DNA of 64,000 bases from Candidatus Oxydemutatoraceae bacterium (GTDB lineage: Bacteria; Pseudomonadota; Gammaproteobacteria; Poriferisulfidales; Oxydemutatoraceae): contig OZ243039.1 of assembly GCA_965212025.1 (NCBI GenBank), positions 1,135,705 through 1,199,704 of the forward strand, given 5' to 3'. How positions within the stretch are numbered: the stretch's first letter is position 1; each line of letters begins with the position of its first letter. Below, one piece after another: positions 3,455-28,520 of this stretch. Both the position numbers and the translations under genes were made by a program. The notes under the pieces are model-generated. The model was given only the letters and a program-made list of their open reading frames with translations. It did not search any database and was not told the DNA's origin.

Positions 3455-4839
3455 TTAGTCCGCTTGACCGGCAGGACCAAGGTCTCCGTGAGCAAAAACT
3501 CCGGCAACATAAAAGCCTGAGTCGTTCCAGTATTCGGCAAGCAAATTCACTTCGGTATCAAAGACATCACCGGCATCATATTCAGATCCAGGTGGACCAC
3601 CTGCGGCGTCCCGCTCGTGGTGGAATCCGAGCAACTGAACCCTGGACAACCAAGAGACTGGTGGGGAGACGGCTAGCTTGACCATTTGCGTTCTCTGATC
3701 CGAATTGTTATGCCACCACTCACCGGCGAACTCTCCCTGGAACCAAGTGCCCCAACTTCTGAGAAAGGTGTAAAACAATGCGTCATGTGCCTCATTACTG
3801 TCAGGGGTGTTTGGATCGTCTCCACTGGCACGAAAATATCGATACCCAACTTGCGGACTCCAAGGCAACCCCTGAATGTTGTGTTCTACTTCCGCATAGT
3901 AGGAGTAAGCGTCGCTGTAGCTCACCGTGCCATCTGGGCTGTCGCCAGCATCCAAAATGACTTCCCCGTAGAAAGTTGTATTTGGCAAAGCCGAGAATTT
4001 CAAACCTTCAAGGCGAAAGTCGTAATAACGCCTGCCTTGTCTAGTGGGGCTATCAGAAGCAGTAACAGCTATGTACATAAGCCCAAGCTTGCCTCCCGTC
4101 AGAAAGCCTAATCCTGCTTCTGGCACCGTGTACTCCAGGTTCACCCCCCATACTTGAGTGTTCAGCCCTTTGTAGATATCAGAGCCCCCTTCCAACCAGA
4201 AAATGTCAGCACGAACGTCTTCAACCCCAGGAACCTGATTAACGCGAACTATGGCTGATTCGCGAAAAGCCTTGTGTGCGCCGATGAAAAATTCGCCGGA
4301 GTCCCGACCACAAAAAGTATTACCACAGTCCAGAGAGCCATCACCGATCAGTAGTGCATCACCAACTACAAAGTCTTGCGCACCAAAGGAGACGTCCACC
4401 CAGTCATTGCGATAACCCAAATTCGCCCACTCGTTAATAAATTTGTGGTCGCCATCCTCAACGTAGCCGTATGGGGCGGGATCATTGCCAAAAGTCCACG
4501 ACGCTGCCGAGACGTAGGATATCCTGCTGTAAATGGTGCCGCCGGCGTCCAGATCGTAAGTCAAATCAATTTGCGGCTCTAAGGCCACCTCGCCCTCGTT
4601 GGAGTCGTTGGTCGACTGGTATCGCTAGAAGAGCCACCACCGTTTGCGGTTATGGCAAAGCCAACCAGCAACGCGCTGACTTTCGCTTTGAAGTTTCCTG
4701 CGGAGTACAACTCATATTCAGAGTAGGCGGCGGGGGAGAAAGCCAAGGCAGTGAAAGCTACGGATAGCGTAGCCCACACCTGTGAGGCTCGTAAAAAGCT
4801 ACCCTTACGGCCAGCTCTAAAAGCAGAAATTTCTAACAT
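3455..4839 (-). pseudogene. Outer-membrane beta-barrel (alginate-export/AlgE-like porin) gene interrupted by a frameshift near 4600-4625
   Basis: The N-terminal ORF 4579..4839 encodes a signal peptide (MLEISAFRAGRKGSFL...ALAFSPAAYS) plus the first strands. The body ORF 3455..4588 lies in another frame, is rich in aromatic and alternating residues, and ends in a terminal F (AlgE-like). The two frames overlap and an in-frame TAG sits at 4625-4627. Confidence 0.6.
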
Positions 4840-5783
4840 CTTATTATCTCCATTACGAGTGGTGGCGGATTCCTGGTCACCGTCCAGACTTAAAACGGCG
4901 ACTGCGTTCCTGCAAGCCTAGGCGCAGACAATATGTGCCCTACAACTGGAAAGGCTCTGAAACCCAGAGCAAAACTTGCTCCGCGGGTCATCCTAGACAA
5001 AGGAAATAGCAATTGCAAGTACTTTGTTGTAGCGAAGCGCTATTGGTTCAAAAATGGTTTTTGGCTTTCGGTGGTGTGACGAATGTTGCCCCTTGTGGCC
5101 GGTATCCGGATTTTACCCACTCTTGTATGTTTACAGTGCTTGCTCCGGAGCCGCCAAGGGCTGGATGTGTCCGTTTTTTGTTGGAATCTGGTGTTTGCGT
5201 TACATGGAGAGAAGGCATCTTCATTGTGCTTTGACGGACTACGACATTGCCTTGCGTGCAAGGCCGGGCGCCAGGAGTTGTTTTGACCCGTTGGAATTGC
5301 CAAAGTTGAATGACGCCGTGAAGGGATCGAAAGCTTTATTTTCCTGCAAGGGCGTTATTATGTCCGTTTGAGTGGACACCCAGTGCGAAAGCAGGACATT
5401 AATGTGGCGAAGCGCAGTCTCAAGCTTCAGGAAGGCCTGCTGTCAGGGACTATGGTCAGTACGCCCTTTGCCATATCCTGGAAGCCTGGATTTCGGTGAA
5501 CCGTTTCCGGTCGGGGAAGCGAGAGTTGAAGCTTGGGTGGGGACTCGTGTGCTTCGCGAAGGAGAAGCGCGAAGGAACAGGGGATTTGCGAGATCGGCTC
5601 GTTTTGCGCCTGCTCCCTGTTTTTCAGCTGCCAACCCTGCCTGACAAAAATTGCAGGCAATTCAAACATTATTCGATCTGATGTTTTTGATGGAAATACG
5701 AAAGCGAGCGCAGCGCTTCTGATGTTGATCGTGTGCGCGTGTTAGCTGCCGTGGCTTTTTCTCATTTCAGAACGCGTATAAAG

Positions 5784-6404
5784 ATGTGCGGCATCCGCAA
5801 TTCTGCGACTGTCCAGCAGTTGGTGCAGTTGGGGGTGGATGCCATCGGTTTGAACTTTGTGGCTTCCAGTCCGCGTTGTATTTCCTTAGAGGACGCTGTG
5901 AAAATGCTCCAGGCGCGCCCGATTTTTCTCAGCGTGGTCGCCTTGTTCATGGATCAAGATGCCAGCTTTGTGCGCCAGGTGGTCACCGCATTGCGTCCCG
6001 ACTACTTGCAATTTCATGGTTCCGAGAGCCCCGGTTACTGTACCGGGTTTGGTGTGCCTTACATCAAGGCTGTGCCCATGGCGGATCCGGAGCGCGCCGG
6101 AATTTGTGTGCGTCAACATCATGAACAGGCTTCGGCATTGTTGTACGATTCACACGCACCGGGAACAGCAGGTGGTAGTGGGCTCTCGTTTGTCTGGCAA
6201 AAATTGCCAAAGTGGACAGACTGCCCTGTCATATTGGCAGGAGGGCTGACGGCCACTAACGTTCGAGAAGCCATTTCGCTTACTCGGCCTTATGGGGTGG
6301 ATGTGTCCAGTGGAATTGAAAGAATAAAAGGAACCAAGGATTTATCGCTGATGAAAGATTTTGTGGAATCCGTGCGGCGTGCTGACCGGGAAGTGCTGCG
6401 TTGA
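5784..6404 (+). CDS. trpF: Phosphoribosylanthranilate isomerase
   Basis: The ATG at 5784 gives '[25 protein letters not shown]...' with the PRAI fold motifs. It is followed directly by trpB and trpA. Confidence 0.85.
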
Positions 6405-6405
6405 T

Positions 6406-7614
6406 ATGACCCAGGCATGTCGCTTTAGTGGGCAGGACTTACCCGACAGCAAAGGGTATTTTGGTTCATACGGTGGGCGCTTTGTAGCAGAAACCCTGAT
6501 TCATCCCCTGCAGGAACTGGAAAAGGCATGGCGGATCTCTCAGAAAGACCAGGGTTTTCAAAAAGAGCTTGACGGACTCCTGTCAAATTATGTTGGTCGA
6601 CCCAGCCCTCTGTATTTTGCGAAAAACCTGAGTGCCGAGCTTGGGGGTGCCGCGGTGTATTTGAAACGCGAAGACTTGAATCACACCGGCGCACACAAAA
6701 TCAACAGTGCTTTGGGTCAGGCTTTGCTCGCCAGGCGCATGGGGAAAACGCGTGTCATTGCGGAGACCGGTGCTGGTCAACATGGTGTGGCGACCGCGAC
6801 TGTGGCCACCTTGTTCGGGTTGAAATGCACGGTTTTTATGGGTGAAGAAGACATGGTCAGGCAAAAGCCCAATGTGTACCGCATGCGGCTTTTGGGCGCG
6901 AAGGTGGTGGGTGTTGCCGCTGGCTCGCGCACTCTGAAAGACGCCATGAACGAAGCGATGCGTGAATGGGTTGGCAGTGTTGAGGATACTTTTTACATCA
7001 TCGGCACCGTTGCCGGCCCTCACCCTTACCCGGCCGTCGTGCGTGATTTTCAAGCTGTAATCGGGCGCGAAACTGCTTCACAACTGCGCGCAATCACCGG
7101 GCAGGATCCTGATGCTCTGGTTGCCTGCATTGGTGGAGGCTCCAATGCCATCGGTCTTTTCGCGCCTTTTATTTCGAAGACAAAGGTCAAGCTGTATGGC
7201 GTAGAAGCAGCGGGCAAAGGCATTTCCAGTGGTCTCCACGCTGCATCGCTGACCGCAGGGAAACCTGGGGTGTTACACGGCAATCGTACCTATCTTCTGG
7301 CCGACGATGACGGGCAGATTTTAGCTACGCATTCCATCTCGGCTGGCCTGGATTATCCGGGTGTCGGTCCCGAACATGCTTGGCTTAAAGATACCGGCAG
7401 GGCTGAGTACGTGACTGCTACCGATGCTGAGGCCTGGCAAAGCTTCCAGCGACTGTGCCGGTGCGAGGGAATCATCCCGGCACTCGAAAGTAGCCATGCG
7501 CTGGCTTATGTGGAAAAAATCGCACCGCGCTTCACCGCGCAGCAGAATATTGTTGTTAACCTCTCCGGGCGTGGTGACAAGGATTTGGAAATCGTTGCAA
7601 AACTTGGCAACTGA
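6406..7614 (+). CDS. trpB: Tryptophan synthase beta chain
   Basis: '[15 protein letters not shown]...[22 protein letters not shown]...GGGSNAIG' is the canonical PLP-dependent TrpB sequence. The ATG at 6406 abuts the trpF stop codon. Confidence 0.92.
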
Positions 7615-8440
7615 AATCCATTCCGGACGCATTAAGGACTGCTTCGACAGCTTGCGGAGCAGTCGGCGCGTAGCTTTGGTGGCGTACATTGTGGCAGGAG
7701 ACCCGTCTCCCGAACGCGTGGTGCCACTGATGAAAACTTTGGTGGCAAGCGGCGTCGACATCATTGAATTAGGCGTGCCTTTTTCTGATCCCATGGCGGA
7801 TGGGCCAGTCATTCAGAGGGCGTGCGAAAGGGCGCTTTCCCATCAGACGAACTATGCCCAGGTTGTCGGTTTTGTGGCGGAATTCCGCAAATCCGATACC
7901 CGAACTCCGGTGGTGCTGATGGGTTACCTCAACCCCATTGAAGCAATGGGGTACAAGTCTGCGGTGGGTCTGGCAAAAAGAGCCGGAGTGGATGGCTTCT
8001 TGATCGTCGACATGCCTCCCGAAGAAGGAACTTCCCTGGAGAAGGAAATGGTACGCAACCACCTTGATTTGATTTTTTTGCTTGCACCGACGACTCCGGA
8101 AGCACGAATTCGCACAATCTGCAAAGCTGCGCGCGGTTTTATTTATTATGTTTCTCTCCGAGGAGTCACCGGCGCTGGCAATTTGAGTTGTTCTGAAGTG
8201 GTGCAGCGACTTGCTGAAATCAAGCGCCACACTGACTTGCCCGTTGGAGTTGGATTTGGCATCAAGGACGCGGCTGTGGCTGCCGAAATTGCGGGGCACT
8301 GTGATGCGATTGTTGTGGGCAGCGCCATTGTTCGGTGCATTGAGCGCCACCGTGATGACTGGCCACAATGCCAGGCAGCGATAAGTACACTGCTGCGACC
8401 CATGCGTCAGGCTATGGATGCAGCCACTGGAGCTGCTTGA
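7604..8440 (+). CDS. trpA: Tryptophan synthase alpha chain
   Basis: '[50 protein letters not shown]' matches the TrpA N-terminus. The likely start is the TTG at 7604, overlapping the trpB stop; the exact start is uncertain. Confidence 0.85.
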
Positions 8441-11233: not shown

Positions 11234-11820
11234 GTATCCCGGTGCTGCTGGATCTGGGCATTGTGCTGCTATTCGCGGTTTCGATCTGGTGTGGTTACAA
11301 GTCTGGTGTTTCGGTGCGCTTGATCAAGGTTGCAAGCCTGGTGTTGGCACTCTACGCCGCGCTTCACGTTCCCATATTGTTGGGTTGGTTCCCCGACAGC
11401 TGGGTGGACGGTGGATTTGAGTTTTTCGATTATGAATTTGAGCCCGGCAAGATTCCGTACTGGTTGTTTGCGGCTCTGATTTTTGTCGCCGTCTGGATGG
11501 CTGGAAGGCTGGTCGCCAAGTTGTTTGAAGCGGCCCGGTCGAAAGGTAAGGGCGCAGGGCTGGATAATCTGCTTGGTGGGCTTTATGGTGCAGCGCGTGG
11601 CTTGGTTATTGCCGTGTTGATCGTGGGGCTTGCGCGGCTTAGCCCGACTATCGTTGAACACGAATTCTGGAAGCAGTCAGAGTTCGTTCCCAGGCTGGAA
11701 ATTTTGGTGGACAGAGTGCTGCAGGAAACTCCGGAGTGGTTCACCCAACTTTTTGAGCCGGTACAGGAGCATGTCGGGGAAGACACGATCGAAGACGTGT
11801 ACGAGGGAAATGGCTTATAA
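11230..11820 (+). CDS. cvpA: CvpA-family membrane protein (colicin V production protein homolog)
   Basis: 196-aa membrane protein with four hydrophobic helices, located between dedD and purF as in E. coli. The start codon is uncertain (TTG at 11230 or GTG at 11242). Confidence 0.7.
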   Translation: MSIPVLLDLGIVLLFAVSIWCGYKSGVSVRLIKVASLVLALYAALHVPILLGWFPDSWVDGGFEFFDYEFEPGKIPYWLFAALIFVAVWMAGRLVAKLFEAARSKGKGAGLDNLLGGLYGAARGLVIAVLIVGLARLSPTIVEHEFWKQSEFVPRLEILVDRVLQETPEWFTQLFEPVQEHVGEDTIEDVYEGNGL

Positions 11821-11832
11821 GGAGACGCTGAA

Positions 11833-13326
11833 ATGTGTGGCGTAGTTGGTATTTATGGCAAAAAGCCAGTGAGCCGGCGGCTGTACGATGCGTTGACCTG
11901 GCTTCAACACCGCGGTCAGGATGCGGCTGGAATTGTCAGCTGCGAAGACCGGAGTGTGCATGAGCGCCGTGGTATGGGCTATGTGCGGGATGTCTTTTCA
12001 GAAGCAGACCTTGCTGGCTTGCGAGGCAATACCGGCATCGGTCATGTGCGTTACCCGACTTCCGGGGTCCTGAGCCTCAAAGAAACACAGCCTTTTTACG
12101 TAAATTCTCCTTACGGCATTGCCCTTGCGCATAACGGCAACCTGGTCAACTCTGCGGCTTTGCGAGACGAATTGTTCAGGGATGATTTGCGCAATATCGA
12201 TACTTTCTGTGATTCGGAGGTGTTGCTGAACGTTTTCGCGCATGAAATGCTGGCAAAGCGCGAGTACCCCATCACGCCAGACGCGGTTTTCGAAGCGGTC
12301 TCAAGGGTGCACAAACGCTGCCAGGGGGCTTATGCCGCCGTGTTTCTTCTGGCGGGGCAGGGTCTGTTGTTTTTCCGCGATCCCAACGGTATTCGACCGC
12401 TGATTTACGGGAAGCGGGAAGGGAAGCGCGGAGTTGAGTACATGGTCGCGTCTGAAAGCGTGGCGCTGGTTTCGCAAGGATTTGTCATTGAGCGCGATGT
12501 ACGCCCCGGAGAAGCTGTTTTTATCAGCAAAGACAAAGTTTATGCACGGGATTGCGCGGCGCCACACAGCCGTTATCGCAGTTGTTTGTTTGAATATGTG
12601 TATCTGGCACGTCCGGACTCGATTGTCGACAATGTTTTTGTGCACAAGGCACGGATGCGGATGGGCGAATACTTGGCCGCGAAAATCCTGCGGGAGTTAC
12701 CTGAAAACGACATAGACGTGGTCATCCCTGTTCCCGACACCAGCCGTACTGCCGCTTTGGAACTGGCAGTGAATATTGATGTGTGTTATCGCGAGGGCTT
12801 CATCAAGAATCGTTTCATAGGGCGCACTTTCATCATGTCAGCCCAAAGGCTTCGCCAGAAATCGGTTCGCCAGAAGCTGAATCCTTTGGGCATAGAGTTC
12901 AAGGACAAAAACGTTTTGCTGGTTGATGATTCCATCGTGCGCGGGACAACTTCCCGGCAAATTGTCCGTATGGCGCGAGACGCCGGTGCGAAGAAAGTGT
13001 ATTTTGCATCGGCGGCTCCCCCCGTTTGCTTCCCTAATGTTTATGGTATCGACATGCCGTCACGGCGAGAATTGCTCGCCGCTGAAAGAAACACTGAGGA
13101 AATTGAAAAGATTCTTGGAGTTGACCGTATTTTTTATCAGGATCTTGATGATTTGGTTGCGTCAGTGCGGGCAGGGAATTCGGATTTGGAGCAGTTTGAA
13201 GCTTCCGTGTTTGATGGTAAATATCAACACGATGTCAGTCCTTCCTATTGGGAGAGCCAGAACGATGTGCGTGTGGAAAGACCAGGGACGATATTGACCA
13301 TGGCAAAAAATTCGGCGCGTGCCTGA
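11833..13326 (+). CDS. purF: Amidophosphoribosyltransferase
   Basis: 'MCGVVGIYG' provides the N-terminal nucleophile Cys of the glutamine amidotransferase class II domain. A PRTase domain 'VLLVDDSIVRGTTS' follows. Confidence 0.95.
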   Translation: MCGVVGIYGKKPVSRRLYDALTWLQHRGQDAAGIVSCEDRSVHERRGMGYVRDVFSEADLAGLRGNTGIGHVRYPTSGVLSLKETQPFYVNSPYGIALAHNGNLVNSAALRDELFRDDLRNIDTFCDSEVLLNVFAHEMLAKREYPITPDAVFEAVSRVHKRCQGAYAAVFLLAGQGLLFFRDPNGIRPLIYGKREGKRGVEYMVASESVALVSQGFVIERDVRPGEAVFISKDKVYARDCAAPHSRYRSCLFEYVYLARPDSIVDNVFVHKARMRMGEYLAAKILRELPENDIDVVIPVPDTSRTAALELAVNIDVCYREGFIKNRFIGRTFIMSAQRLRQKSVRQKLNPLGIEFKDKNVLLVDDSIVRGTTSRQIVRMARDAGAKKVYFASAAPPVCFPNVYGIDMPSRRELLAAERNTEEIEKILGVDRIFYQDLDDLVASVRAGNSDLEQFEASVFDGKYQHDVSPSYWESQNDVRVERPGTILTMAKNSARA

Positions 13327-13919
13327 TGTATTACGCTTCGGAGAGCCGCATTCAGTCCGGTTCGGAACCGGGGCGCCGTTGGCGATGGCTGGTGCGACGA
13401 CTGATTCGCCGACACCGGTGTGGCGCGCTTCCACTGGTGCTGGTCAATCTGGACGAACAGCGTCTTTTTTTCTATCGGCAGGGGCGTCCGGATGCCTGTT
13501 ATCCGGTTTCCACGTCTCGCTTTGGTGCCGGGAACATTGAGCACTCTCTGAGAACACCGCTTGGGGTTCATCGGGTATCTGAATTGATCGGCGCGGATGC
13601 GCCACCTTTGACAGTGTTTAGGGCGCGGAAGGCAAGTGGAGAAGTTGCCACGATAAACGACCCGTCTCAGGAAGGAGCAGACCTGATTTGTTCGCGCGTT
13701 GTCCGCTTGGCCGGGCTGGAACCGGGCACCAATCAGGGTGGAGACTGCGACAGTGAGCAGCGAAACATTTATATCCATGGAACCTGGGATGAAGAGCGTG
13801 TCGGCACACCAGCTTCCAACGGCTGTGTACGCATGAAGAACCAGGATGTCATTGTGCTTTTTGACCAGCTTGTGGTGGGCTCACTGGTACATTTCTTTAC
13901 TGACAAAGCCCGTTTTTGA
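13326..13919 (+). CDS. L,D-transpeptidase (YkuD family)
   Basis: C-terminal catalytic motif 'IYIHGTWDEERVGTPASNGCVRMKNQDV' (His...Cys). The ATG at 13326 overlaps the purF stop (TGATG). Confidence 0.75.
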   Translation: MYYASESRIQSGSEPGRRWRWLVRRLIRRHRCGALPLVLVNLDEQRLFFYRQGRPDACYPVSTSRFGAGNIEHSLRTPLGVHRVSELIGADAPPLTVFRARKASGEVATINDPSQEGADLICSRVVRLAGLEPGTNQGGDCDSEQRNIYIHGTWDEERVGTPASNGCVRMKNQDVIVLFDQLVVGSLVHFFTDKARF

Positions 13920-13976
13920 GTCGCCGTACCGGGGTATGAGAACGATGTATGTACGGATGCCCGTGCCTGAAGTTCC

Positions 13977-15239
13977 TTGGTGTCCCAGTCCATAACAGAA
14001 AGCCGCACCAGCCTGGTGGAAATTTACCGTGCCGCGCTTGACCGCGTGCAGGGAACGCCGGTTGTTCGTGAATACCTGAGTCGATCTCCCTTGCCAAATC
14101 CTGTGCATCTGGTGGCGGTCGGGAAGGCAGCGTCGGCGATGGGCCTGGGCGCGTTCCAGGCTTTGGGAGACAAAATCAGCAGCGGTCTGGTGATTACCAA
14201 AAGCGGCCATCTAGACGAAGCACTCGTGCGGCTAAAAAATTTCCGGTGCCTGGAATCTGATCATCCGGTGCCCGGAGTTGCCAGCCTGCGCGCCGGGGCG
14301 GTATTGCTGGAATATGTGAAGGAGCGCGCAAAGCGCAACCAGGATCTGCTGTTTCTGCTTTCCGGTGGTGCCTCAAGTTTGGTGGAAGTCCTTCCCGACA
14401 CCATGCGTCTTGAAGATTTCAGAACACTGACCAGCCGCATGCTGGCGACCGATTTGGACATTCAGCGCATCAATACGGTACGCCGCGCCATTTCTAAAAT
14501 CAAAGGAGGTCGTCTGGCGACTCACCTGAAGGGATGTCGGGTGCTGAGCTTGTTAATTTCAGACGTGCCGGGAGATGATCCTGCGGTGATCGGTTCGGGA
14601 CTTTTGACTCCGGTCAGAGAAACGCTTGATCTGGATTCCTATCCCGGGAAAGTGCGTGAACTGCTAGGGGACTTAAAGGTTTGCGAGGTTCCCGGTGACG
14701 AGTGCTTTGCGGGCATGGAAACGCATATTGTTGCGTGCCTTGGTGATGCGAAGCAGGCGGCGGCAAAACATGCCCGTGCGCTTGGTTTTCAGGTTTCGGT
14801 CGCGCCGGAATTTATGGCAGGAGAGGTGGGAGCAACAGCCAGGGCAATGGTGCGCCAGCTTCAACAGCACAGCGGAGTGTTGTGGATCTGGGGTGGCGAA
14901 ACTTGGGTTGAATTGCCGGCGAATCCGGCGCGTGGTGGACGCAATCAGCACTTGGCTTTGGTGGCAGCCATGGAGCTACAGGGAAGGCAGCAGCAAGTGT
15001 TGCTTAGTGCCGGTACAGATGGCACAGATGGAGCAACAAACGATGCCGGTGCCATAGTGGACGGAGAAACAGTGCGCAGGGGTGCGGCTTTGGGCATGGA
15101 CGCCGGTGATTTTCTGAGACGCGCCGATGCCGGGAACTTTCTTGCCGCTACGGGCGATTTGATTACGACCGGACCGACCGGGACTAACGTCATGGACTTG
15201 ACCATCGGTGTAAACCTGGATGCCGTAGTTTCGGCCTGA
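13977..15239 (+). CDS. Glycerate 2-kinase (MOFRL/GckA-TtuD family)
   Basis: A 420-aa protein from the MOFRL family. Conserved blocks include 'LVAVGKAASAM', 'LLSGGASSLV', 'ISKIKGGRL' and 'SAGTDGTDGATNDAGA'. Confidence 0.8.
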   Translation: MVSQSITESRTSLVEIYRAALDRVQGTPVVREYLSRSPLPNPVHLVAVGKAASAMGLGAFQALGDKISSGLVITKSGHLDEALVRLKNFRCLESDHPVPGVASLRAGAVLLEYVKERAKRNQDLLFLLSGGASSLVEVLPDTMRLEDFRTLTSRMLATDLDIQRINTVRRAISKIKGGRLATHLKGCRVLSLLISDVPGDDPAVIGSGLLTPVRETLDLDSYPGKVRELLGDLKVCEVPGDECFAGMETHIVACLGDAKQAAAKHARALGFQVSVAPEFMAGEVGATARAMVRQLQQHSGVLWIWGGETWVELPANPARGGRNQHLALVAAMELQGRQQQVLLSAGTDGTDGATNDAGAIVDGETVRRGAALGMDAGDFLRRADAGNFLAATGDLITTGPTGTNVMDLTIGVNLDAVVSA

Positions 15240-15551
15240 TATTCCTGACTTCCCCCCAAGCGACTTTCGGTACAGACAGAGAGATTTTTCCGTAACCTGG
15301 CGCAAAGGCGCCATCATTGTGAAAGGCCTGAAGTTTGCAGGAATGCTCGCAAGCTGAAAGCTTGCGTCGTGGCTCATGGGGAAGGTCAAGAGATCACACC
15401 TGATGCACGTTGTTTGGAAATGCGGCGTCAGCTTGTGCTGGGTCTGCGGTCGTAATTCTTGGCCGCTTCCAATTCAAGAAAGGTGGATTCAAGAGGACAC
15501 TCAGTCGTACAGTCAAATGGCGAGCAAGGATGGGGAGAGAACAATCTGACC

Positions 15552-16846
15552 ATGGCAAGAATAGAAGGATTAAAGATTCAAAATTATCGAGTACTGAAAG
15601 ACGTGACGCTTGGAAAACTGTGCAATACGTAAAAAGCCGACCCACTGACGCCCATGACGGTGGTTATCGGGAAAAACGGTGCTGGGAAGAGCGCACTGCT
15701 CGATGCTTTCGGTTTTTTGGCTGATTGTTTGAAACCAGGTGTCGCGGATGCGTGTAACCATAGAGGGCGGGGAGGACTTACCGTGTCCGTTCTCAAGGAA
15801 GTAGCGACCCCATTGTGTTTGAGATCTATTATCGGCAGGGGAAGAAGGATCGCCCAATCACTTATGAAGTTGGAATCAATGAGGATTCGGATGGTCGCCC
15901 CTACGTAGCAAAAGAGCGGCTCCGCCAGCGGCGAAAAGGACAAAAACGAGGGCAACCCTTCTCCTTTTTCAGGTTGGTGAAAGGTACGGGATTCGTGTGG
16001 ACAGGGGAGATGCAGGCAACTGAGCGTGATGATAGCGTGGCGGATTCAGAGTGAAAAAATTATTGTCTTAAATCTCCTCCAGACATAGCAAGTGAAGAAC
16101 AGGAAAGTGGCAAAAAAGAGTTTGTTGAGCTATACAACAGACAAAGACTAGGTATCGCGACCTTTGGTTCTTTGAAGCAGCATCCCCGAATATCTGTGCT
16201 TCGGGAGTTTATTGAAAGCTGGTATTTGAGTTATTTCACGCCAGATGCTGCCCGCGATTCGCCTTTGGCCGGGTCGCAAAGGCATTTGAATACCCATGGT
16301 GACAACCTTGGCAATGTTGTGCAGTTCATGGAAGGTGAACACCCCGAAGAATTCAGTCGTGTACTGGAGAGAATTGCTGCCAAAATCCCGGGGATTGAAA
16401 AAATAGACACAATCGTGAGCATAGACCAGCGGGTGTTGCTCCGTTTCAAGGAGAAGGGCTTTTCTGATCATTTTTACGCCCAGCAAATGTCCGACGGCAC
16501 GCTGAAAGTCTTTGCCTATTTGTTGTTGCTGGAAGACCAGAAGCCGCCGCCATTCATTTGCATAGAAGAGCCAGAAAATGGTCTTTACCACAAGCTTTTG
16601 GATGTTTTGGCAATAGAATTTCGCAAATATACTGTCCACAATAATAATAACGTGCAGCTGTTCATCACCACTCATCAGCCATATTTTGTAAATGCGCTAA
16701 GCCCGGACGAGGTTTGGGTTCTCAAGAAAGGCTCAAATGGTTTTTCGGAGATTTCCAGAGCAAGTGGCAACAACGAGATTGTCGCTTTGGTAGGAGAGGA
16801 GTTCCCGCTTGGAGAACTTTGGCATGGCGAATATTTGGAGGATTAG
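15552..16846 (+). pseudogene. OLD/AAA_21-like ABC-type ATPase, disrupted by at least 2 frameshifts and 1 in-frame TGA
   Basis: Three fragments are visible. 'MARIEGLKIQNYRVLKDVTLGKL' (15552-) resembles the N-terminal strand. The next fragment carries a Walker A P-loop 'VVIGKNGAGKSALLDAFGFL'. The last fragment carries a Walker B/D-loop 'PPFICIEEPENGLYHKLL' and H-loop 'LFITTHQPYF'. The pieces sit in different frames, and the frame of 15815..16054 continues into 16172..16846 across a single TGA at 16052-54. The region has lower GC than its flanks. Confidence 0.75.
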
Positions 16847-17523
16847 TCTCGGTACGGGAAGTGTGTCAATGCATATTCGGGTACATATCGGAGATAAATC
16901 GGGGAAGATCTTGCTGAATTCTGTTATGGGGAAAATTATTCAAGGGTCGACAGGCCACTCTTACAAAGTCCATTGCCATCCTGGTGAAGGTCACATTCCG
17001 AAAAAGGAAACCAAAAGCCCAAAACCGAACAAGCAGGGTTTGCTGAATAGACTGCCTAATATTGTTGAGAGGGTTGGGTAAATGCCCAAAAGAAGCTAAT
17101 GCTGTAGTCGTGGTCATGGATTTGGACGATCGTAACTGCCGGGAATTGAAGAAAAAATTATGCGACATCCTGGAGAGCTGCAAACCAGCACCCAGAACAA
17201 AATTCAGGTTTGCGATAGAGGAAACGGAGGCTTGGTTACTGGGAGACCCTAAGGCCATAGAAGCGGCCTGCCCGAAGTGGGACGCTTCAGCCTTGGCTGG
17301 TTATACCCCAAGACAGCATTTGTGGTACGTGGGAAAAGCTGGCGGCATTCATCCAAATGGGTCGAAAGAATTGAAAAAAAAGGGATACCCCTTTGTTGGG
17401 CAATATAAATGCGAGTGGGCGGAAAAAATTGCTCCTTATATGGATGTGGAAAATAATCAATCGAAAAGTTTCCAGGTTTTTCGTGACACTGTCAGAGAAC
17501 TGATAACTCCCAAAACTGTTTGA
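16824..17523 (+). pseudogene. Small partner protein of the ATPase (DUF4276/RloB-like, putative Toprim-like nuclease component), frameshifted near 17060-17080
   Basis: The ATG at 16824 overlaps the ATPase stop, suggesting translational coupling. The C-terminal half has 'AVVVVMDLDDRNCRE...FAIEETEAWLLGDPKAIEAA', which resembles the conserved E-x-E-A-W-L tail of DUF4276 proteins that partner with AAA_21/OLD ATPases. The reading frame switches at about 17062-17081. Confidence 0.5.
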
Positions 17524-23459: not shown

Positions 23460-26400
23460 ATGATGGTGCGTTTGAAATGCTTTGTCTGGGGGGCACAGAG
23501 ACTGATCAGAAACAGATATTGCTTATTGGCTCTGCTGCTGCTGTTGCTGGCGCCTGGCGTGTTTTCGCAAAGCATGCCTGGCAGGGAAGTTGAGTTGCCG
23601 CAGGTGCAATCGAGTCCTGAAATTCGCCATGCCTGGAAAGCAGCGGTTGAAAATTATCCCTTGCAGGCAACGCAGCTTGATCTTTCCGTGCTGAGTGACA
23701 AAGAACAGGAAGAAATCCAAAGTTTGCTCAGTGACCCGATAAAGACCTACGTGGGGATTGGCAGAAACGTACACCTGACTGAAGCAAATTGGGCAATGGT
23801 CAAGCGGCAAGACGGGTTTGCAATATGGCAGGCACAGATCCATTCTCCGGCGGCCTTGTCTTTGAAGGTGCGTTTCAGCGATTTTGATCTTGGGTTGGGG
23901 ATGTCCGTCAAAGTGTACGGTCTCAGTGGTGGCATCGGTGCCCCGGTTGAAGAATATGCGGGTCGTGGATTGGGAGACGATGGGGAGTTTTGGTCATTGG
24001 CGGTTCCTGGAGACTCGGTGGCCGTGGAGTACTGGCTTCCTGCCGAGCTTGAGATGCGCCCTGCTGATTTTCCCTTCAAGGTGGAAAGAATCAGCCATCG
24101 CTTCAGGGAAGAAGGCAAGCTGTCCGGAGTGAATGTGAGGCTCCTTGTCCCCCGACAATCCACTTGTGGATCTCCAGTGCCTGTCTGTTCCGCAAAGAAT
24201 GAAGTGGCGCGGGGTGTTGCTCGCTATTACGTCATTAGGGATGACGGGAAAGAAAGACAGTGTTCTGGCACCTTACTGAACAATGGAAGCGGGTCAGGGA
24301 ACCGTGCGCTTTATTTTCTCACAGCTTTTCATTGCATCGATGGGGTGGTGCGTTCTTCCGAAGTTCCCAAAGACACATTCATCAATACGGAGTTCCGGTT
24401 TCGTTACGATAATTGCACTGATAAATCTGAATACATTGAGGGTAGAGGCGCGACATTTGTTGCCGGAAGTGTGATCACGGTGGGGGATTGGGCGCTGTTG
24501 CGCATTGATGGGGAACTGACCGGTGGCAGCGGGGGTGGCTACACCCTTCTGGGTTGGGATTCTGCAAATCTTTCAAGATTTGCAGGCTACACGATTCATC
24601 ACGGAAGTGGCCTACCGCAAAGGCGCTCTTCATTTGACAGCATCGGTCTTGATTATGTGGCAAGAGTTGTGACGAATGGCAATGGCGGTCGTTCAACAGT
24701 TTTTTTGCCGTGCTCGGGTGCAGGCTGCTCGCATTTCGACTTGCGATTTAATCAAAGTATTTCTGGCGGTGCGTCAGGTGCTTCCATCTTGGTTGATGGT
24801 GACAAGCCGCAAGTGGTGGGCGTGCTTACGAATACTAATGAGACCTGCGGAGGGAATGCTTCCAGGTTCAGCAAGATGTACGAGGATGGGCGGGTTCAGG
24901 GAGCACTCACTTACGGTGACGATTATTTTCGGGACAGGGGAGAGGCGAGAAGCTTTGATGACTCGGCTCGGCCTGACTACAACCCCGTCCCGCCTGCGAT
25001 TGAAGGTGATGCCGAGATTGTGATCGGTGTGGTACATGGCAGTAATGGCTTGCCACTGACTTTGCGTGCCGAGGCGTTTGATGTCCGTTCCTTGCGCTGG
25101 GGTCTGCTGGAGGATTCAGGCCCGAGCGTGGCGGGAAGTGGGGTGCGTTTTCTGGAGGACAAAGGGGCGCGGGCACGTCTTGTCTACGAGGTTCCCGGGG
25201 GGATTAAAGAGCAAGATCAGTTTTCTGTGCAGGTGAGCAGTGCGGGGGGCAGCGATATGGTGACTGTACGCGTGCGACTTATTGGTGGGCCATTGCCGTT
25301 GCCGCCAGAGTGCGAGGGAAAGGGGTTGGCGACGGTTCCGGGGAATGGGACACTTGGCAATCCCTATCAACTGAGCACGCTTTGCCAACTGCAGGACATC
25401 AATTCGCAGCTCGACTCTCACTATCGCCTGACTGCCGATATTGATGCTTCTTCCAGCCGGGACTGGAATGGTGGAAGCGGGTTTCATCCTGTCGCCAAGG
25501 GTGTAGGAATCTTCCAGATTTTTGAACTGCTTGATGGTGAGTTGGCGTTAAGGAGTACTTACGAAAGGACTCTGTCGCAATATGTTTTTAGAGGTTCCTT
25601 CGATGGCGGCGGTTTTTCCATTGATGGACTGGTGGTGAACCGGGAAGAGGAAGAACTCGTGGGTCTGTTTTCCATCACGGATGGTGCCACCTTCAGGAAT
25701 GTGCGGCTTTTGAACTCGGAAATAAAAGGGCGCGACGGAGTTGGCACCTTGGCAGGACTCATGATTCGCAGCACGGTTTCTGGGTTCCATTTCAGGGGCG
25801 GTGTCGATGGGATCTCGGATGTAGGAAGCCTTTCGGGGATCAGTTTTTCCGGGAGCTTTGAAAACGGCTCGGTAACCGGTTCGGTACAGGGGGCTGAAGA
25901 TTTTGTCGGTGGTCTTGCAGGGGGGCATTTTGGGGGGACTGTGTCCGATGTTTCAGCGTACGGGTTGACCGTCTCGGGAAGAAACTATGTTGGCGGGCTC
26001 GTCGGCCATGATAGAAACAGCACCATCAGCGACAGCAATGCGCATACAGAGGTTTCCGGAGACGATTTTGTCGGGGGCTTGACTGGGTGGAGCCAAGGAG
26101 GAACGCTTGGTAAATGCTTCGTAACCGGCACGGCCAACGGCTTCAGCGTTGTTGGCGGACTCGCAGGATGGGTTCGTGGAAGTGACATCATCGACAGTTA
26201 CGCGACAGCTTCTGCCTCGGGAACTGACAACGTGGGCGGATTGGTAGGCTGGAGCAGCAATGGAGGGGCTATCAGCAACAGTTATGCGACCGGAGCTGCT
26301 ACCGGCACCACTTGGGTAGGCAGCCTGGTTGGTGATAATCAGGGCGAAGTCAGGAACAGCTATGCCTCGGGTGTGGTTACGCCGGTAGGGAATGGTCAAT

Positions 26401-28142
26401 ACGTGGGAGGTCTCCTGGGAGATAACAGCGGTGGGTCTTCGTCTGACAGCTTCATGCGTACGTTGGCGCAATTGCAGTGCCCGTTAAGGCCTGGTCAGTC
26501 TTGTCGGGGTGCTCGCTCGTATGTCGGTTGGAGTGAGCGGGAGTGGGACTTTGGTGATGCGAACAAGCTGCCAACCATCCGCTCGCAGCCGGCTCCGGTG
26601 ATTGCGGAGGGTGACGAGAAAGTGCTCGTAGCGGCTTATGGTAGTAGTAGCGTGACGCTGGCCTTGCATGCCGAGTCTGTCAACCCCGATTCTTTGAGAT
26701 GGCAGTTGTTGTCTGGTTCAGGTTCGGGTGTGCCGGGAAGCAGCGTGCGTTTCCTGAAAGACCAAGGAGCAGAGGCGCGTATTGTTTATGAGGTGCAGGG
26801 AGGGATTCGGAAGGAAGACCAATTTTCTGTACAGGTGAGAGGTACAGGTGGCACAGATGTGATTACTGTACTCGTAGGTGTTGCGCCTGCGATTGTAGGG
26901 GATGACGAAAAAGCGCTCAGCGTGGCTTATGGTAGTGGTGAAGGGGAACTGACCATGCGTGCCGGGGCGGTCAATCCTGATTCTCTGAGGTGGCGGTTGG
27001 TGTCCGGCTCAGGTTCGAGTGTGCCGGAAAGTCGTGTACGTTTTCTGAGAAATCAGGGAGTTGAGGCGCGTGTCGTTTATGAGGTTCCTGGCGGGATTCG
27101 GCAGGAAGACCAGTTTTCCATACAGGTGACGGGTACAGGTGGCACAGATGTAGTTGTTGTGCGCGTGGTCGTTGTGCCTACTATTGTGGAGGGTGACGAG
27201 GAAACGCTCGTGGTGGCTTATGGTAGTGGTGGTGGGGAGTTGGTCTTGCATGCCGAGGCGGTCAATCCCGACTCTCTGAGCTGGCAGTTGGTGTCCGGTT
27301 CAGGGCCTCAGGAAGGTAATGTACGCTTTACGGATCAAACGGGAGCTGAAGCACGTGTTGTTTATGAGGTGCGAGGTGGGATTCGTCAGAGAGATAAATT
27401 CTCTGTGCAGGTGCGTGATTCGGGTGGCAGCGATGAAATTACGATTTTTGTGATGCCGGACAGGCCGCCGGTGATCAACCGAGTTTTCGGTAGGGAGGTT
27501 GACGATGATGATGATGAGTTGATTGTCTACATCAGTCCCCAAACTCTAGAAGTGGTTCTGGATGTGATTGCTTCAGACGAGTCTCCTGAAAATCTGGAGT
27601 GGACAGTTACAGGTGATGCTGGAGCTTCGCTTGACATCTTTCCTCGTTCTCGGGTGGGAGGAGAAGTTGAGGTGTCATACCGACGAAGTTCTGCGGAAAT
27701 CAAAAGCGGTAGTTTTGTCACCACAGTGACAGACAGATTTGGACAATCAGACTCGTTTGTGGTGCGTATAGCCGAGAATGCGGATGCTCCGGAGGTCGTC
27801 AATGATGGTGTGACAATCACTAAGACGGGTAAAACGCTGGAAGTGAAAATACCTTACAGCAGCGAGCAACTAGTACTGGATTTGGTTACCCGTTTGGCAC
27901 GGGCGGGGCTTGTGGGGGAACAAGTCAGAAGTACCCCGACCGATGCGCAGGCGTCGTTCTCTTCGGCTGACGGTGAAGGGGCACTGAAGGTTCTGTTACC
28001 GGTTCCACTAGGTGTGGATGAAGCCTCGTTCTTGATACGGGTCAGAAACGGGGCTGCCAGCGAGAAAATTACGATACATGTCACGCGTGAGCAAGTTATC
28101 CGGCTGCGCCTGAAAGCGTACCTCGGTGGAGCGACTCGATAG
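23460..28142 (+). CDS. Secreted multidomain trypsin-like serine protease (lysyl-endopeptidase-like S1 domain + Ig-like repeats + GLUG repeats)
   Basis: Signal peptide 'LIRNRYCLLALLLLLLAPGVFSQ|S'. The S1 catalytic triad has His in 'LTAFHCIDG', Asp in 'GDWALLRIDG' and Ser in 'ISGGASGASI' (compare the lysyl endopeptidase GGSSGSP motif). An 'NGTLGNPYQLSTLCQLQDINSQLDSHYRLTADIDAS' segment precedes multiple 'VGGLVG...NSYATG' GLUG-type repeats. Four ~99-aa Ig-like repeats are present ('...VAYGSG..L.L.AEAVNPDSLRW.L.SGSG....VRF....GAEARVVYEV.GGIR.EDQFSVQV'). The C-terminus ends '...RLRLKAYLGGATR'. Confidence 0.8.
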   Translation: MMVRLKCFVWGAQRLIRNRYCLLALLLLLLAPGVFSQSMPGREVELPQVQSSPEIRHAWKAAVENYPLQATQLDLSVLSDKEQEEIQSLLSDPIKTYVGIGRNVHLTEANWAMVKRQDGFAIWQAQIHSPAALSLKVRFSDFDLGLGMSVKVYGLSGGIGAPVEEYAGRGLGDDGEFWSLAVPGDSVAVEYWLPAELEMRPADFPFKVERISHRFREEGKLSGVNVRLLVPRQSTCGSPVPVCSAKNEVARGVARYYVIRDDGKERQCSGTLLNNGSGSGNRALYFLTAFHCIDGVVRSSEVPKDTFINTEFRFRYDNCTDKSEYIEGRGATFVAGSVITVGDWALLRIDGELTGGSGGGYTLLGWDSANLSRFAGYTIHHGSGLPQRRSSFDSIGLDYVARVVTNGNGGRSTVFLPCSGAGCSHFDLRFNQSISGGASGASILVDGDKPQVVGVLTNTNETCGGNASRFSKMYEDGRVQGALTYGDDYFRDRGEARSFDDSARPDYNPVPPAIEGDAEIVIGVVHGSNGLPLTLRAEAFDVRSLRWGLLEDSGPSVAGSGVRFLEDKGARARLVYEVPGGIKEQDQFSVQVSSAGGSDMVTVRVRLIGGPLPLPPECEGKGLATVPGNGTLGNPYQLSTLCQLQDINSQLDSHYRLTADIDASSSRDWNGGSGFHPVAKGVGIFQIFELLDGELALRSTYERTLSQYVFRGSFDGGGFSIDGLVVNREEEELVGLFSITDGATFRNVRLLNSEIKGRDGVGTLAGLMIRSTVSGFHFRGGVDGISDVGSLSGISFSGSFENGSVTGSVQGAEDFVGGLAGGHFGGTVSDVSAYGLTVSGRNYVGGLVGHDRNSTISDSNAHTEVSGDDFVGGLTGWSQGGTLGKCFVTGTANGFSVVGGLAGWVRGSDIIDSYATASASGTDNVGGLVGWSSNGGAISNSYATGAATGTTWVGSLVGDNQGEVRNSYASGVVTPVGNGQYVGGLLGDNSGGSSSDSFMRTLAQLQCPLRPGQSCRGARSYVGWSEREWDFGDANKLPTIRSQPAPVIAEGDEKVLVAAYGSSSVTLALHAESVNPDSLRWQLLSGSGSGVPGSSVRFLKDQGAEARIVYEVQGGIRKEDQFSVQVRGTGGTDVITVLVGVAPAIVGDDEKALSVAYGSGEGELTMRAGAVNPDSLRWRLVSGSGSSVPESRVRFLRNQGVEARVVYEVPGGIRQEDQFSIQVTGTGGTDVVVVRVVVVPTIVEGDEETLVVAYGSGGGELVLHAEAVNPDSLSWQLVSGSGPQEGNVRFTDQTGAEARVVYEVRGGIRQRDKFSVQVRDSGGSDEITIFVMPDRPPVINRVFGREVDDDDDELIVYISPQTLEVVLDVIASDESPENLEWTVTGDAGASLDIFPRSRVGGEVEVSYRRSSAEIKSGSFVTTVTDRFGQSDSFVVRIAENADAPEVVNDGVTITKTGKTLEVKIPYSSEQLVLDLVTRLARAGLVGEQVRSTPTDAQASFSSADGEGALKVLLPVPLGVDEASFLIRVRNGAASEKITIHVTREQVIRLRLKAYLGGATR
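26590..27470 (+). repeat. Three consecutive ~297-bp intragenic tandem repeats encoding Ig-like modules (a fourth, more diverged copy at ~24990-25290)
   Basis: Protein-level repeats start 'PAPVIAEGDEKVLVAAYGSS', 'PAIVGDDEKALSVAYGSG' and 'PTIVEGDEETLVVAYGSG'. The underlying nucleotide units share long identical stretches, such as 'ggcttatggtagtggtg', 'gtcaatcccgactctctgag' and 'gtttatgaggt'. Confidence 0.8.
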
Positions 28143-28520
28143 GAGTGAACCACGTCTGTTTTGGCAAGCAGTTTCTTGGGTTCTGTTTTGAGTGAAGCTC
28201 CGTTTGTTCAGGATGAGGGTTAGCAACGGGTCTGCCAGCGAGAAAATTACGATACATGTCACGCGTGAGCAGGTTATCCGGCTGCGCCTGAAGGCGCACC
28301 TCGGTGGAGCGGCTCGATAGGAGTGAATCACGCCCGTTTCGGCAAGCTACTCCTTGGATTCTGTTTTGAGTGAAGCTCCGTTTGTTCAGGATGAGGGTTA
28401 GCAACGGGTCTGCCAGCGAGCAAATGACGACATTATGTGAGTGGGGTTATGCGCGAGCAGGTTATATCCGGTCGTGCCTGAAAGCACACCTCGGTGGTGC
28501 GATTCGATAGGAGTGAATCA
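28044..28520 (+). repeat. Three tandem ~180-bp copies of the protease 3'-tail cassette (copy 1 is the true gene end; copies 2 and 3 are degenerate)
   Basis: Copy 1 at 28044-28141 encodes '...NGAASEKITIHVTREQVIRLRLKAYLGGATR*'. Copy 2 at 28222-28319 encodes 'NGSASEKITIHVTREQVIRLRLKAHLGGAAR*'. Copy 3 at 28402-28508 carries indels and encodes '...CLKAHLGGAIR*'. The spacers between copies ('gagtgaa[ct]cacg...gttcaggatgagggttagc') are themselves homologous to upstream coding sequence. Confidence 0.85.

Follow-up and report, generated by a model that had tools for sequence, protein, structure and literature searches.

Between a glycerate kinase gene and lpxH in a 64,000-nucleotide stretch of contig OZ243039.1 (Candidatus Oxydemutatoraceae bacterium; hereafter the window, with positions counted from its first letter) lie two adjoining pseudogenes on the plus strand (15552–17523). 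They raise the questions of what the pair once encoded, how long it has resided at this site, and how it came to be lost. We report that the locus is very probably a dead copy of a HEC-01-type ATPase–Toprim module, an old vertical resident that three related genomes are now losing, each on its own. HEC-01 (Hma-embedded candidate 01) combines an ABC ATPase with a TOPRIM protein bearing an OLD-like metal site (Payne et al., bioRxiv 10.1101/2024.01.29.577857); it is a candidate defense system, already catalogued and not validated.

Two adjoining pseudogenes with six disabling lesions

Lesions were placed by alignment with two related loci. L001 lies on OZ250161.1, the 2.0-Mb chromosome of a Ca. 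Oxydemutatoraceae metagenome-assembled genome (MAG), which also carries locus L002; L003 lies on OZ244118.1 (uncultured Ca. Porisulfidus sp., 3.0 Mb) and represents the closest relative found. The intact 431-amino-acid ATPase of L001 (P0001) was used as the tblastn query, the DNA was aligned to L001 and L003, and three intact partner proteins were also aligned.

The upstream gene, a HEC-01A-type ABC ATPase (AAA_21/AAA_15) pseudogene (15552–16846, plus strand), runs from an ATG at 15552 to a TAG stop at 16844–16846 and comprises about 431 codons once repaired; the repaired product showed 69% identity with P0001. Its Walker A motif GKNGAGKS (15669–15692), the ABC signature-like QMSDGT (16484–16501), and the Walker B/D-loop FICIEEPENGLYH (16553–16591), all on the plus strand, are still intact, and the first and last of these were found as a reading made from the letters alone (the sequence-only reading) had described them. 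TTHQP (16667–16681) also lies in the ATPase reading frame. The first lesion is a nonsense change at codon 27, an in-frame TAA (15630–15632) where L001 has AAA (Lys). The second is a 1-nt deletion at codon 77 (15779/15780; CTT-ACCGT in the window versus TTTAATCGG in L001), which lies outside any long homopolymer and moves the coding sequence from frame 0 to frame 2 (RGGL[N]RVRSQG). The third is an in-frame TGA at about codon 168 (16052–16054), in the region of the family's variable insert, which aligns with TGG (Trp) of L001; TGA acts as a stop in the source genome, for example at the end of the glycerate kinase gene (15237–15239). The ATPase thus occupies two frames with two in-frame stops, rather than the three or more frames plus a TGA proposed by the sequence-only reading, which was right about the TGA.

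The downstream gene, a HEC-01B-type DUF4276 (Toprim-like) pseudogene (16869–17523, plus strand), comprises about 218 codons once repaired and ends with a TGA at 17521–17523. Alignment with the three intact homologues and with the intact partner P0122 fixed its start at the ATG of 16869. This start had been thought to lie inside the ATPase stop region, with translational coupling; it lies instead 22 nt past the stop, and the spacer (16847–16868) has the same length in L001 and measures 3–4 nt in other family members. The single frameshift noticed earlier proved to be one of three indels. An extra T at 17060 causes a +1 frameshift, and its removal gives RLPKLLRGLGK, to be compared with the family consensus RLPKLLRGYGK. 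A CCCC run at 17306–17309 has one C too many and causes a second +1 frameshift, after which QDSICGTWEKL (17309–17341) is read in a third frame. Finally, a net deficit of 4 nt relative to L001 and L003 (17343–17362), equivalent to a −1 shift, brings the sequence back to its final frame; the missing bases are held by both L001 and L003, and their loss is therefore specific to the window. The DxD motif (D-L-D; 17119–17127), which follows β3 of the Toprim-like fold and aligns with the invariant D86 and D88, is retained. The conserved acidic motif EETEAWLLGDP (17218–17250) is also present, after β4 and in the middle of the protein, not at its end as had been supposed.

In the pair as a whole, six disabling lesions, three per gene, fall within 1.97 kb, and neither gene is able to make a full-length product. 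With the family consensus as outgroup, deviations at family-conserved columns that were private to the window outnumbered those private to L001 by 39 to 14 in the ATPase (chi-square about 11.8) and by 17 to 7 in the partner. This excess indicated relaxed constraint: the window branch had accelerated, as expected of a pseudogene.

Assignment to HEC-01 and comparison with known systems

The conceptually repaired products were searched against the Pfam, PADLOC, and NCBIfam profiles. In PADLOC, the ATPase matched HEC-01A (PDLC04182; E = 4.6e-178), with residues 1–430 on profile positions 1–401 of 406, and the partner matched HEC-01B (PDLC04205; E = 1.7e-64), with residues 1–210 on positions 1–211 of 213. 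In Pfam, the ATPase scored 125.9 bits with AAA_21 (PF13304; 4.6e-36; gathering threshold, GA, 27) and 60 bits with AAA_15 (PF13175; 4.1e-16; GA 32.1). The repaired partner of the window scored 31.8–33.1 bits with DUF4276 (PF14103) versus a GA of 30.2, and the same profile gave 42.5 for the repaired partner of L001 and 41.9 for the intact P0122. These full-length HEC-01 matches and above-threshold Pfam scores bear out the earlier assignment to an AAA_21/OLD-like ATPase with a DUF4276 partner. Both families are large and strongly conserved: the ATPase had at least 8000 homologues, with lengths of about 430 amino acids and identities of 63–69%, and the partner had about 2000, of 216–223 amino acids; the partner showed 50–55% identity with intact ones. 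In three unrelated contigs, the intact genes adjoin on one strand with a gap of 3–4 nt; two of these pairs lie among housekeeping genes and the third beside toxin–antitoxin, transposase, and helicase genes.

The window resembles HEC-01 in being a two-gene arrangement in which an ABC ATPase is paired with a TOPRIM-like partner, with the gene order and strand of the intact pairs: both genes are on the plus strand, and the ATPase stop ending at 16846 is followed by the partner ATG at 16869. It differs in that its pair is a pseudogenized member with six lesions, with the longer spacer noted above and a glycine at the invariant glutamate of the β1–α1 loop, and in that it lies among housekeeping genes, outside any Hma system.

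Sequence searches of the PDB with the partner profile and with P0001 gave no meaningful match; a fold search was therefore used instead, and the partner showed a Toprim-like α/β fold, in agreement with the description of HEC-01 by Payne et al. DUF4276 belongs to the Toprim superfamily, in which the catalytic Glu lies in the β1–α1 loop and a DxD follows β3 (PMC12065111), and DUF4276-associated ATPases have been grouped, in the same tree, among the AAA15/21 OLD-like defense ATPases (PMC11464382). In the OLD family (P2 Old; Class 2 BpOLD, PDB 6NK8) and in GajA of Gabija, however, the ATPase and Toprim domains form one polypeptide, whereas they are encoded by separate genes in the window and in all intact homologues examined. 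The PADLOC profile of GajA matched the window ATPase at only 7.7e-13, and no solved structure matched at the sequence level. PARIS, which consists of the ABC ATPase AriA and the DUF4435 Toprim protein AriB, has the same split architecture, and AAA_21-type AriA profiles matched the ATPase at 4.4e-35; the window partner, in contrast, matched only the HEC-01 profiles and DUF4276, not the DUF4435 of AriB. In MADS (methylation-associated defense system), Mad4 is a DUF4276 homologue that occurs with an AAA ATPase (PMC12065111), and the PADLOC mad3 profile matched the window ATPase at 1.6e-22. However, the NCBIfam search gave sub-threshold matches only, including MAD3 (NF047739) at 97 bits, far under the cut-off of 420, and neither a methyltransferase nor any other MADS gene was found nearby.

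The intact module consists of an ABC-type (AAA_21/AAA_15) ATPase of about 431 amino acids and, downstream, a Toprim-like DUF4276 protein of about 218 amino acids, and it is in effect an OLD-family nuclease split over two polypeptides. By analogy with OLD, Gabija, and PARIS, we infer how intact members probably work: the ATPase would sense a trigger and control the Toprim partner, and the latter would cut nucleic acid with metal ions held by the β1–α1 loop Glu, the DxD, and the EE.E of the acidic motif. The anti-phage role that the sequence-only reading proposed for the pair is unproven.

Residence of the pair and its loss in related genomes

The gene order purF–YkuD–glycerate kinase–[pair]–lpxH–PPIase–smpB–bamC–dapA is identical in the window and in L001. 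The 22 kb around the module are collinear with two relatives, and all eight neighboring genes compared with L001 aligned over their full length without lesions, so that six lesions in the 1.97 kb of the module exceed what chance would give. The other broken genes that had been reported for the window were not seen in the approximately 22 kb comparable with relatives.

Substitution rates between the window and L001 were estimated by the method of Nei and Gojobori. The ratio of nonsynonymous to synonymous divergence (dN/dS) was 0.244 for the ATPase (dS 0.83) and 0.216 for the partner (dS 1.06), compared with 0.11–0.32 for the eight flanking genes (dS 0.48–0.80). The silent-site divergence of the pair was about equal to that of its neighbors. 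Its flank-like dS, together with its low dN/dS, indicated vertical inheritance from a common ancestor and recent inactivation, and purifying selection acted on the pair during most of the period since the ancestor of the window and L001.

The relatives are losing the module in ways of their own. In L001, the ATPase is intact, and the partner (11319–11979) is broken at positions other than those of the window, by an indel of about +2 near 11416 and a −1 indel in an A8 run at about 11458–11465. If the A8 indel does not stem from faulty assembly, the effector has decayed first in this genome. The glycerate kinase of L003 shows 93% amino acid identity with that of the window. L003 aligns with the window over 13000–15255 and resumes at 17346, so that 2,090 bp (15256–17345) are missing from it; the final 178 bp of the partner (the homologue of 17346–17523) survive there as a relic that is itself frameshifted. 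The difference between the two loci reflects a deletion in L003 and not an insertion in the window.

Taken together, the family matches, lesions, synteny, deletion, and rates are best explained if the module already stood at the glycerate kinase–lpxH junction in the common ancestor of the window genome and its Ca. Oxydemutatoraceae relative. It would then have passed through a long period of purifying selection before being lost independently. The three loci would represent separate stages of that loss: both genes broken in the window, only the partner broken in L001, and a 2.09-kb deletion leaving a 178-bp relic in L003. The finding is real but ordinary. In small-genome sponge symbionts, it documents a clean, naturally occurring series of decay stages of a candidate defense module that is widespread but not validated, and its significance is modest; this series and the shared loss of a Toprim glutamate, described below, are all that goes beyond routine annotation.

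Altered glutamate of the Toprim-like partner

Codon 8 of the partner (16890–16892, plus strand) is GGA (Gly) in place of the family-invariant Glu of the β1–α1 loop, and L001 has the same change. Family members show no variation at L6, E8, and D9, and E4 occurs in at least 90% (118 of the 118 homologues inspected, together with a 63-sequence alignment, A1). In the structural model, E8 and D9 are predicted to form part of the β1–α1 loop, in which the catalytic Glu of Toprim domains lies. R4, H6, and G8 occupy these positions in the window (MHIRVHIGDKSG) and in L001 (MHFRIHIGDESG), and the change is therefore older than their split; yet dN/dS points to prolonged constraint after it. The loop glutamate was thus lacking in both loci, and the DxD was found. 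D9 may substitute for E8; alternatively, the lineage kept a catalytically altered partner.

If the latter, the ancestral pair would have been a domesticated or catalytically altered variant with some other role, and not an active nuclease defense: the sponge-symbiont family would have lost the Toprim Glu of the partner (E8G, with E4R and L6H) before the split and nevertheless long kept the pair under purifying selection. We consider this unlikely, although several observations speak for it. Besides the shared replacements, the partner dN/dS is still 0.22 across a dS of about 1, HEC-01 has given no phage protection when tested, and pairs elsewhere lie among housekeeping genes. However, D9, the DxD, and the EE.E are retained, so that catalysis may survive via D9, and a pairwise dN/dS cannot date E8G relative to the constrained period. 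Were it true, the three lineages would have discarded in parallel a catalytically rewired or non-nucleolytic HEC-01 variant whose role was other than classical nuclease defense. The shared loss gives a modest starting point for testing whether this residue is required in HEC-01B.

The same observation counts among the points that weigh against our interpretation of the locus as a dead HEC-01 module of long residence, because a simple active nuclease that died recently would not be predicted to show a shared E8G at the presumed catalytic Glu along with a dN/dS far under 1. The defense label and the OLD- or PARIS-like mechanism attach to HEC-01 by analogy, and in the only published test it protected against none of the phages used (Payne et al., bioRxiv 10.1101/2024.01.29.577857). 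The clade sample consists of three genomes, and two scans of Joint Genome Institute (JGI) metagenomes, which used the glycerate kinase protein and a clade-specific DNA pattern of the partner, respectively, returned no further clade members. Finally, the evidence is that of assembled consensus sequence, in which one indel of the window falls in a C4 run and one of L001 in an A8 run.

Sequencing error, recent arrival, and residual function

This last point leads to the possibility that the organism itself carries undamaged genes and that their stops and frameshifts are errors of sequencing or assembly. Porisulfidus has been described as a sponge symbiont, and such MAGs are assembled with metaMDBG from PacBio HiFi data. 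The contig names of the relatives fit long-read MAGs of the metaMDBG type, the assembly of the window itself is probably of the same kind, and amplified HiFi libraries of ultra-low input were employed in at least one published sponge project of that type. We nevertheless judge errors to be a very improbable explanation. The indel in the C4 run at 17306–17309 is the only one of the window in a homopolymer, and the run is merely four bases long, while two of the six lesions are stop-creating substitutions and another is a net 4-nt deficit, all atypical of long-read errors. The lesions are confined to 1.97 kb within 22 collinear kilobases in which the eight neighboring genes are full length, and errors could not produce the excess of conserved-column changes (39 versus 14). 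Moreover, the assemblies of the two relatives are independent, and in these the module is broken elsewhere or deleted.

The sequence-only reading had viewed the pair as a horizontally acquired module caught in pseudogenization, in a lower-GC stretch between glycerate kinase and lpxH. The pseudogenization of both genes and the lower G+C content (GC) were confirmed. A recently acquired islet that decayed soon after arrival would indeed account for a module GC of 46.7% against flanks of 53–54% (54.3 and 52.6% in the 5 kb on the two sides), for the occurrence of the family across many phyla at 63–66% identity, and for the one genome in which the pair adjoins transposase and toxin–antitoxin genes. 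The comparison with relatives, however, leaves such an arrival scarcely tenable. In L001 the pair has an identical site, orientation, and 22-nt spacer, its DNA aligns continuously with that of the window, including the 66 nt upstream of the ATPase start, and the relic of L003 lies at the same place. The dS of the pair is similar to that of the flanks, and P0001 of L001 is the top match at 69%, whereas no other match exceeds 66%. No integrase, flanking repeats, or repeat scars were seen at the module borders. Scans of the window for Rfam families and tRNAs returned nothing, and there is therefore no tRNA integration site. In each of the five genomes examined, hosts of about 70% GC among them, the GC of the pair also falls below that of its flanks, and its low GC is therefore no evidence of recent arrival. 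A low-GC islet can thus be an old vertical resident instead of a newcomer. Three loci with the pair at approximately 6001–7980 each (L004, L005, and L006) likewise showed a pair GC under that of the flanks, by up to 15 points in hosts of about 70% GC, and in two of these three the pair stands alone among housekeeping genes.

It is hardly credible that the fragments still function, by recoding (readthrough or programmed frameshifting) or through a stand-alone C-terminal ATPase fragment, because although a 224-amino-acid open reading frame (ORF; 16172–16846) keeps the signature motif, Walker B, and H-loop, it has no Walker A, the source genome uses TAA and TGA as normal stop codons, six separate recoding events would be required, and no slippery-site pattern is common with L001, whose lesions lie elsewhere.

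Other features of the locus and the window

In the upstream intergenic region (15240–15551, plus strand), which extends from the glycerate kinase stop to the start of the ATPase, only 15240–15359 and 15486–15551 aligned with L001, as judged from the boundaries of the blastn high-scoring segment pairs. This region had no promoter-like sites above shuffle expectation, and a promoter and terminator scan of the locus found nothing usefully above the shuffle background. A 57-amino-acid upstream ORF and three antisense ORFs (16148–16675, 16866–17258, and 15584–15955) were considered as genes and rejected, with no family matches.

Gene callers have deposited fragments of both partner pseudogenes as DUF4276 proteins: P0121 (135 amino acids; window 17116–17523) and P0176 (161 amino acids; L001 11494–11979). 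Database DUF4276 "proteins" derived from pseudogenes constitute an annotation hazard, and defense-system finders would overlook the locus.

The two relatives have expanded intergenic repeats that are not present in the window. In L001, a 99-bp tandem repeat of 2.2 copies (12031–12248) separates the partner relic from lpxH. In L003, approximately 526 bp after smpB (13683–14208) contain ORFs with repeated peptides and did not align with the window. Conversely, 228 bp of the window (5383–5610) are missing from L003; they lie within approximately 1.1 kb (4589–5732) in which neither a long ORF nor any match to Rfam or tRNAs was found. As candidates for other broken genes, the overlaps at 53.7–54.8 and 59.2–59.7 kb and the gap at 35.8–36.2 kb were inspected and appeared by eye to be ordinary intact genes (a membrane transporter, a small membrane protein, and a ferredoxin). 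A 1560-amino-acid ORF (23460–28142) contains a 291-bp repeat of 2.4 copies (26600–27304), and a tandem repeat with a 178-bp unit in 2.2 copies (91% match; 28039–28430) spans its 3′ end and the gap that follows.

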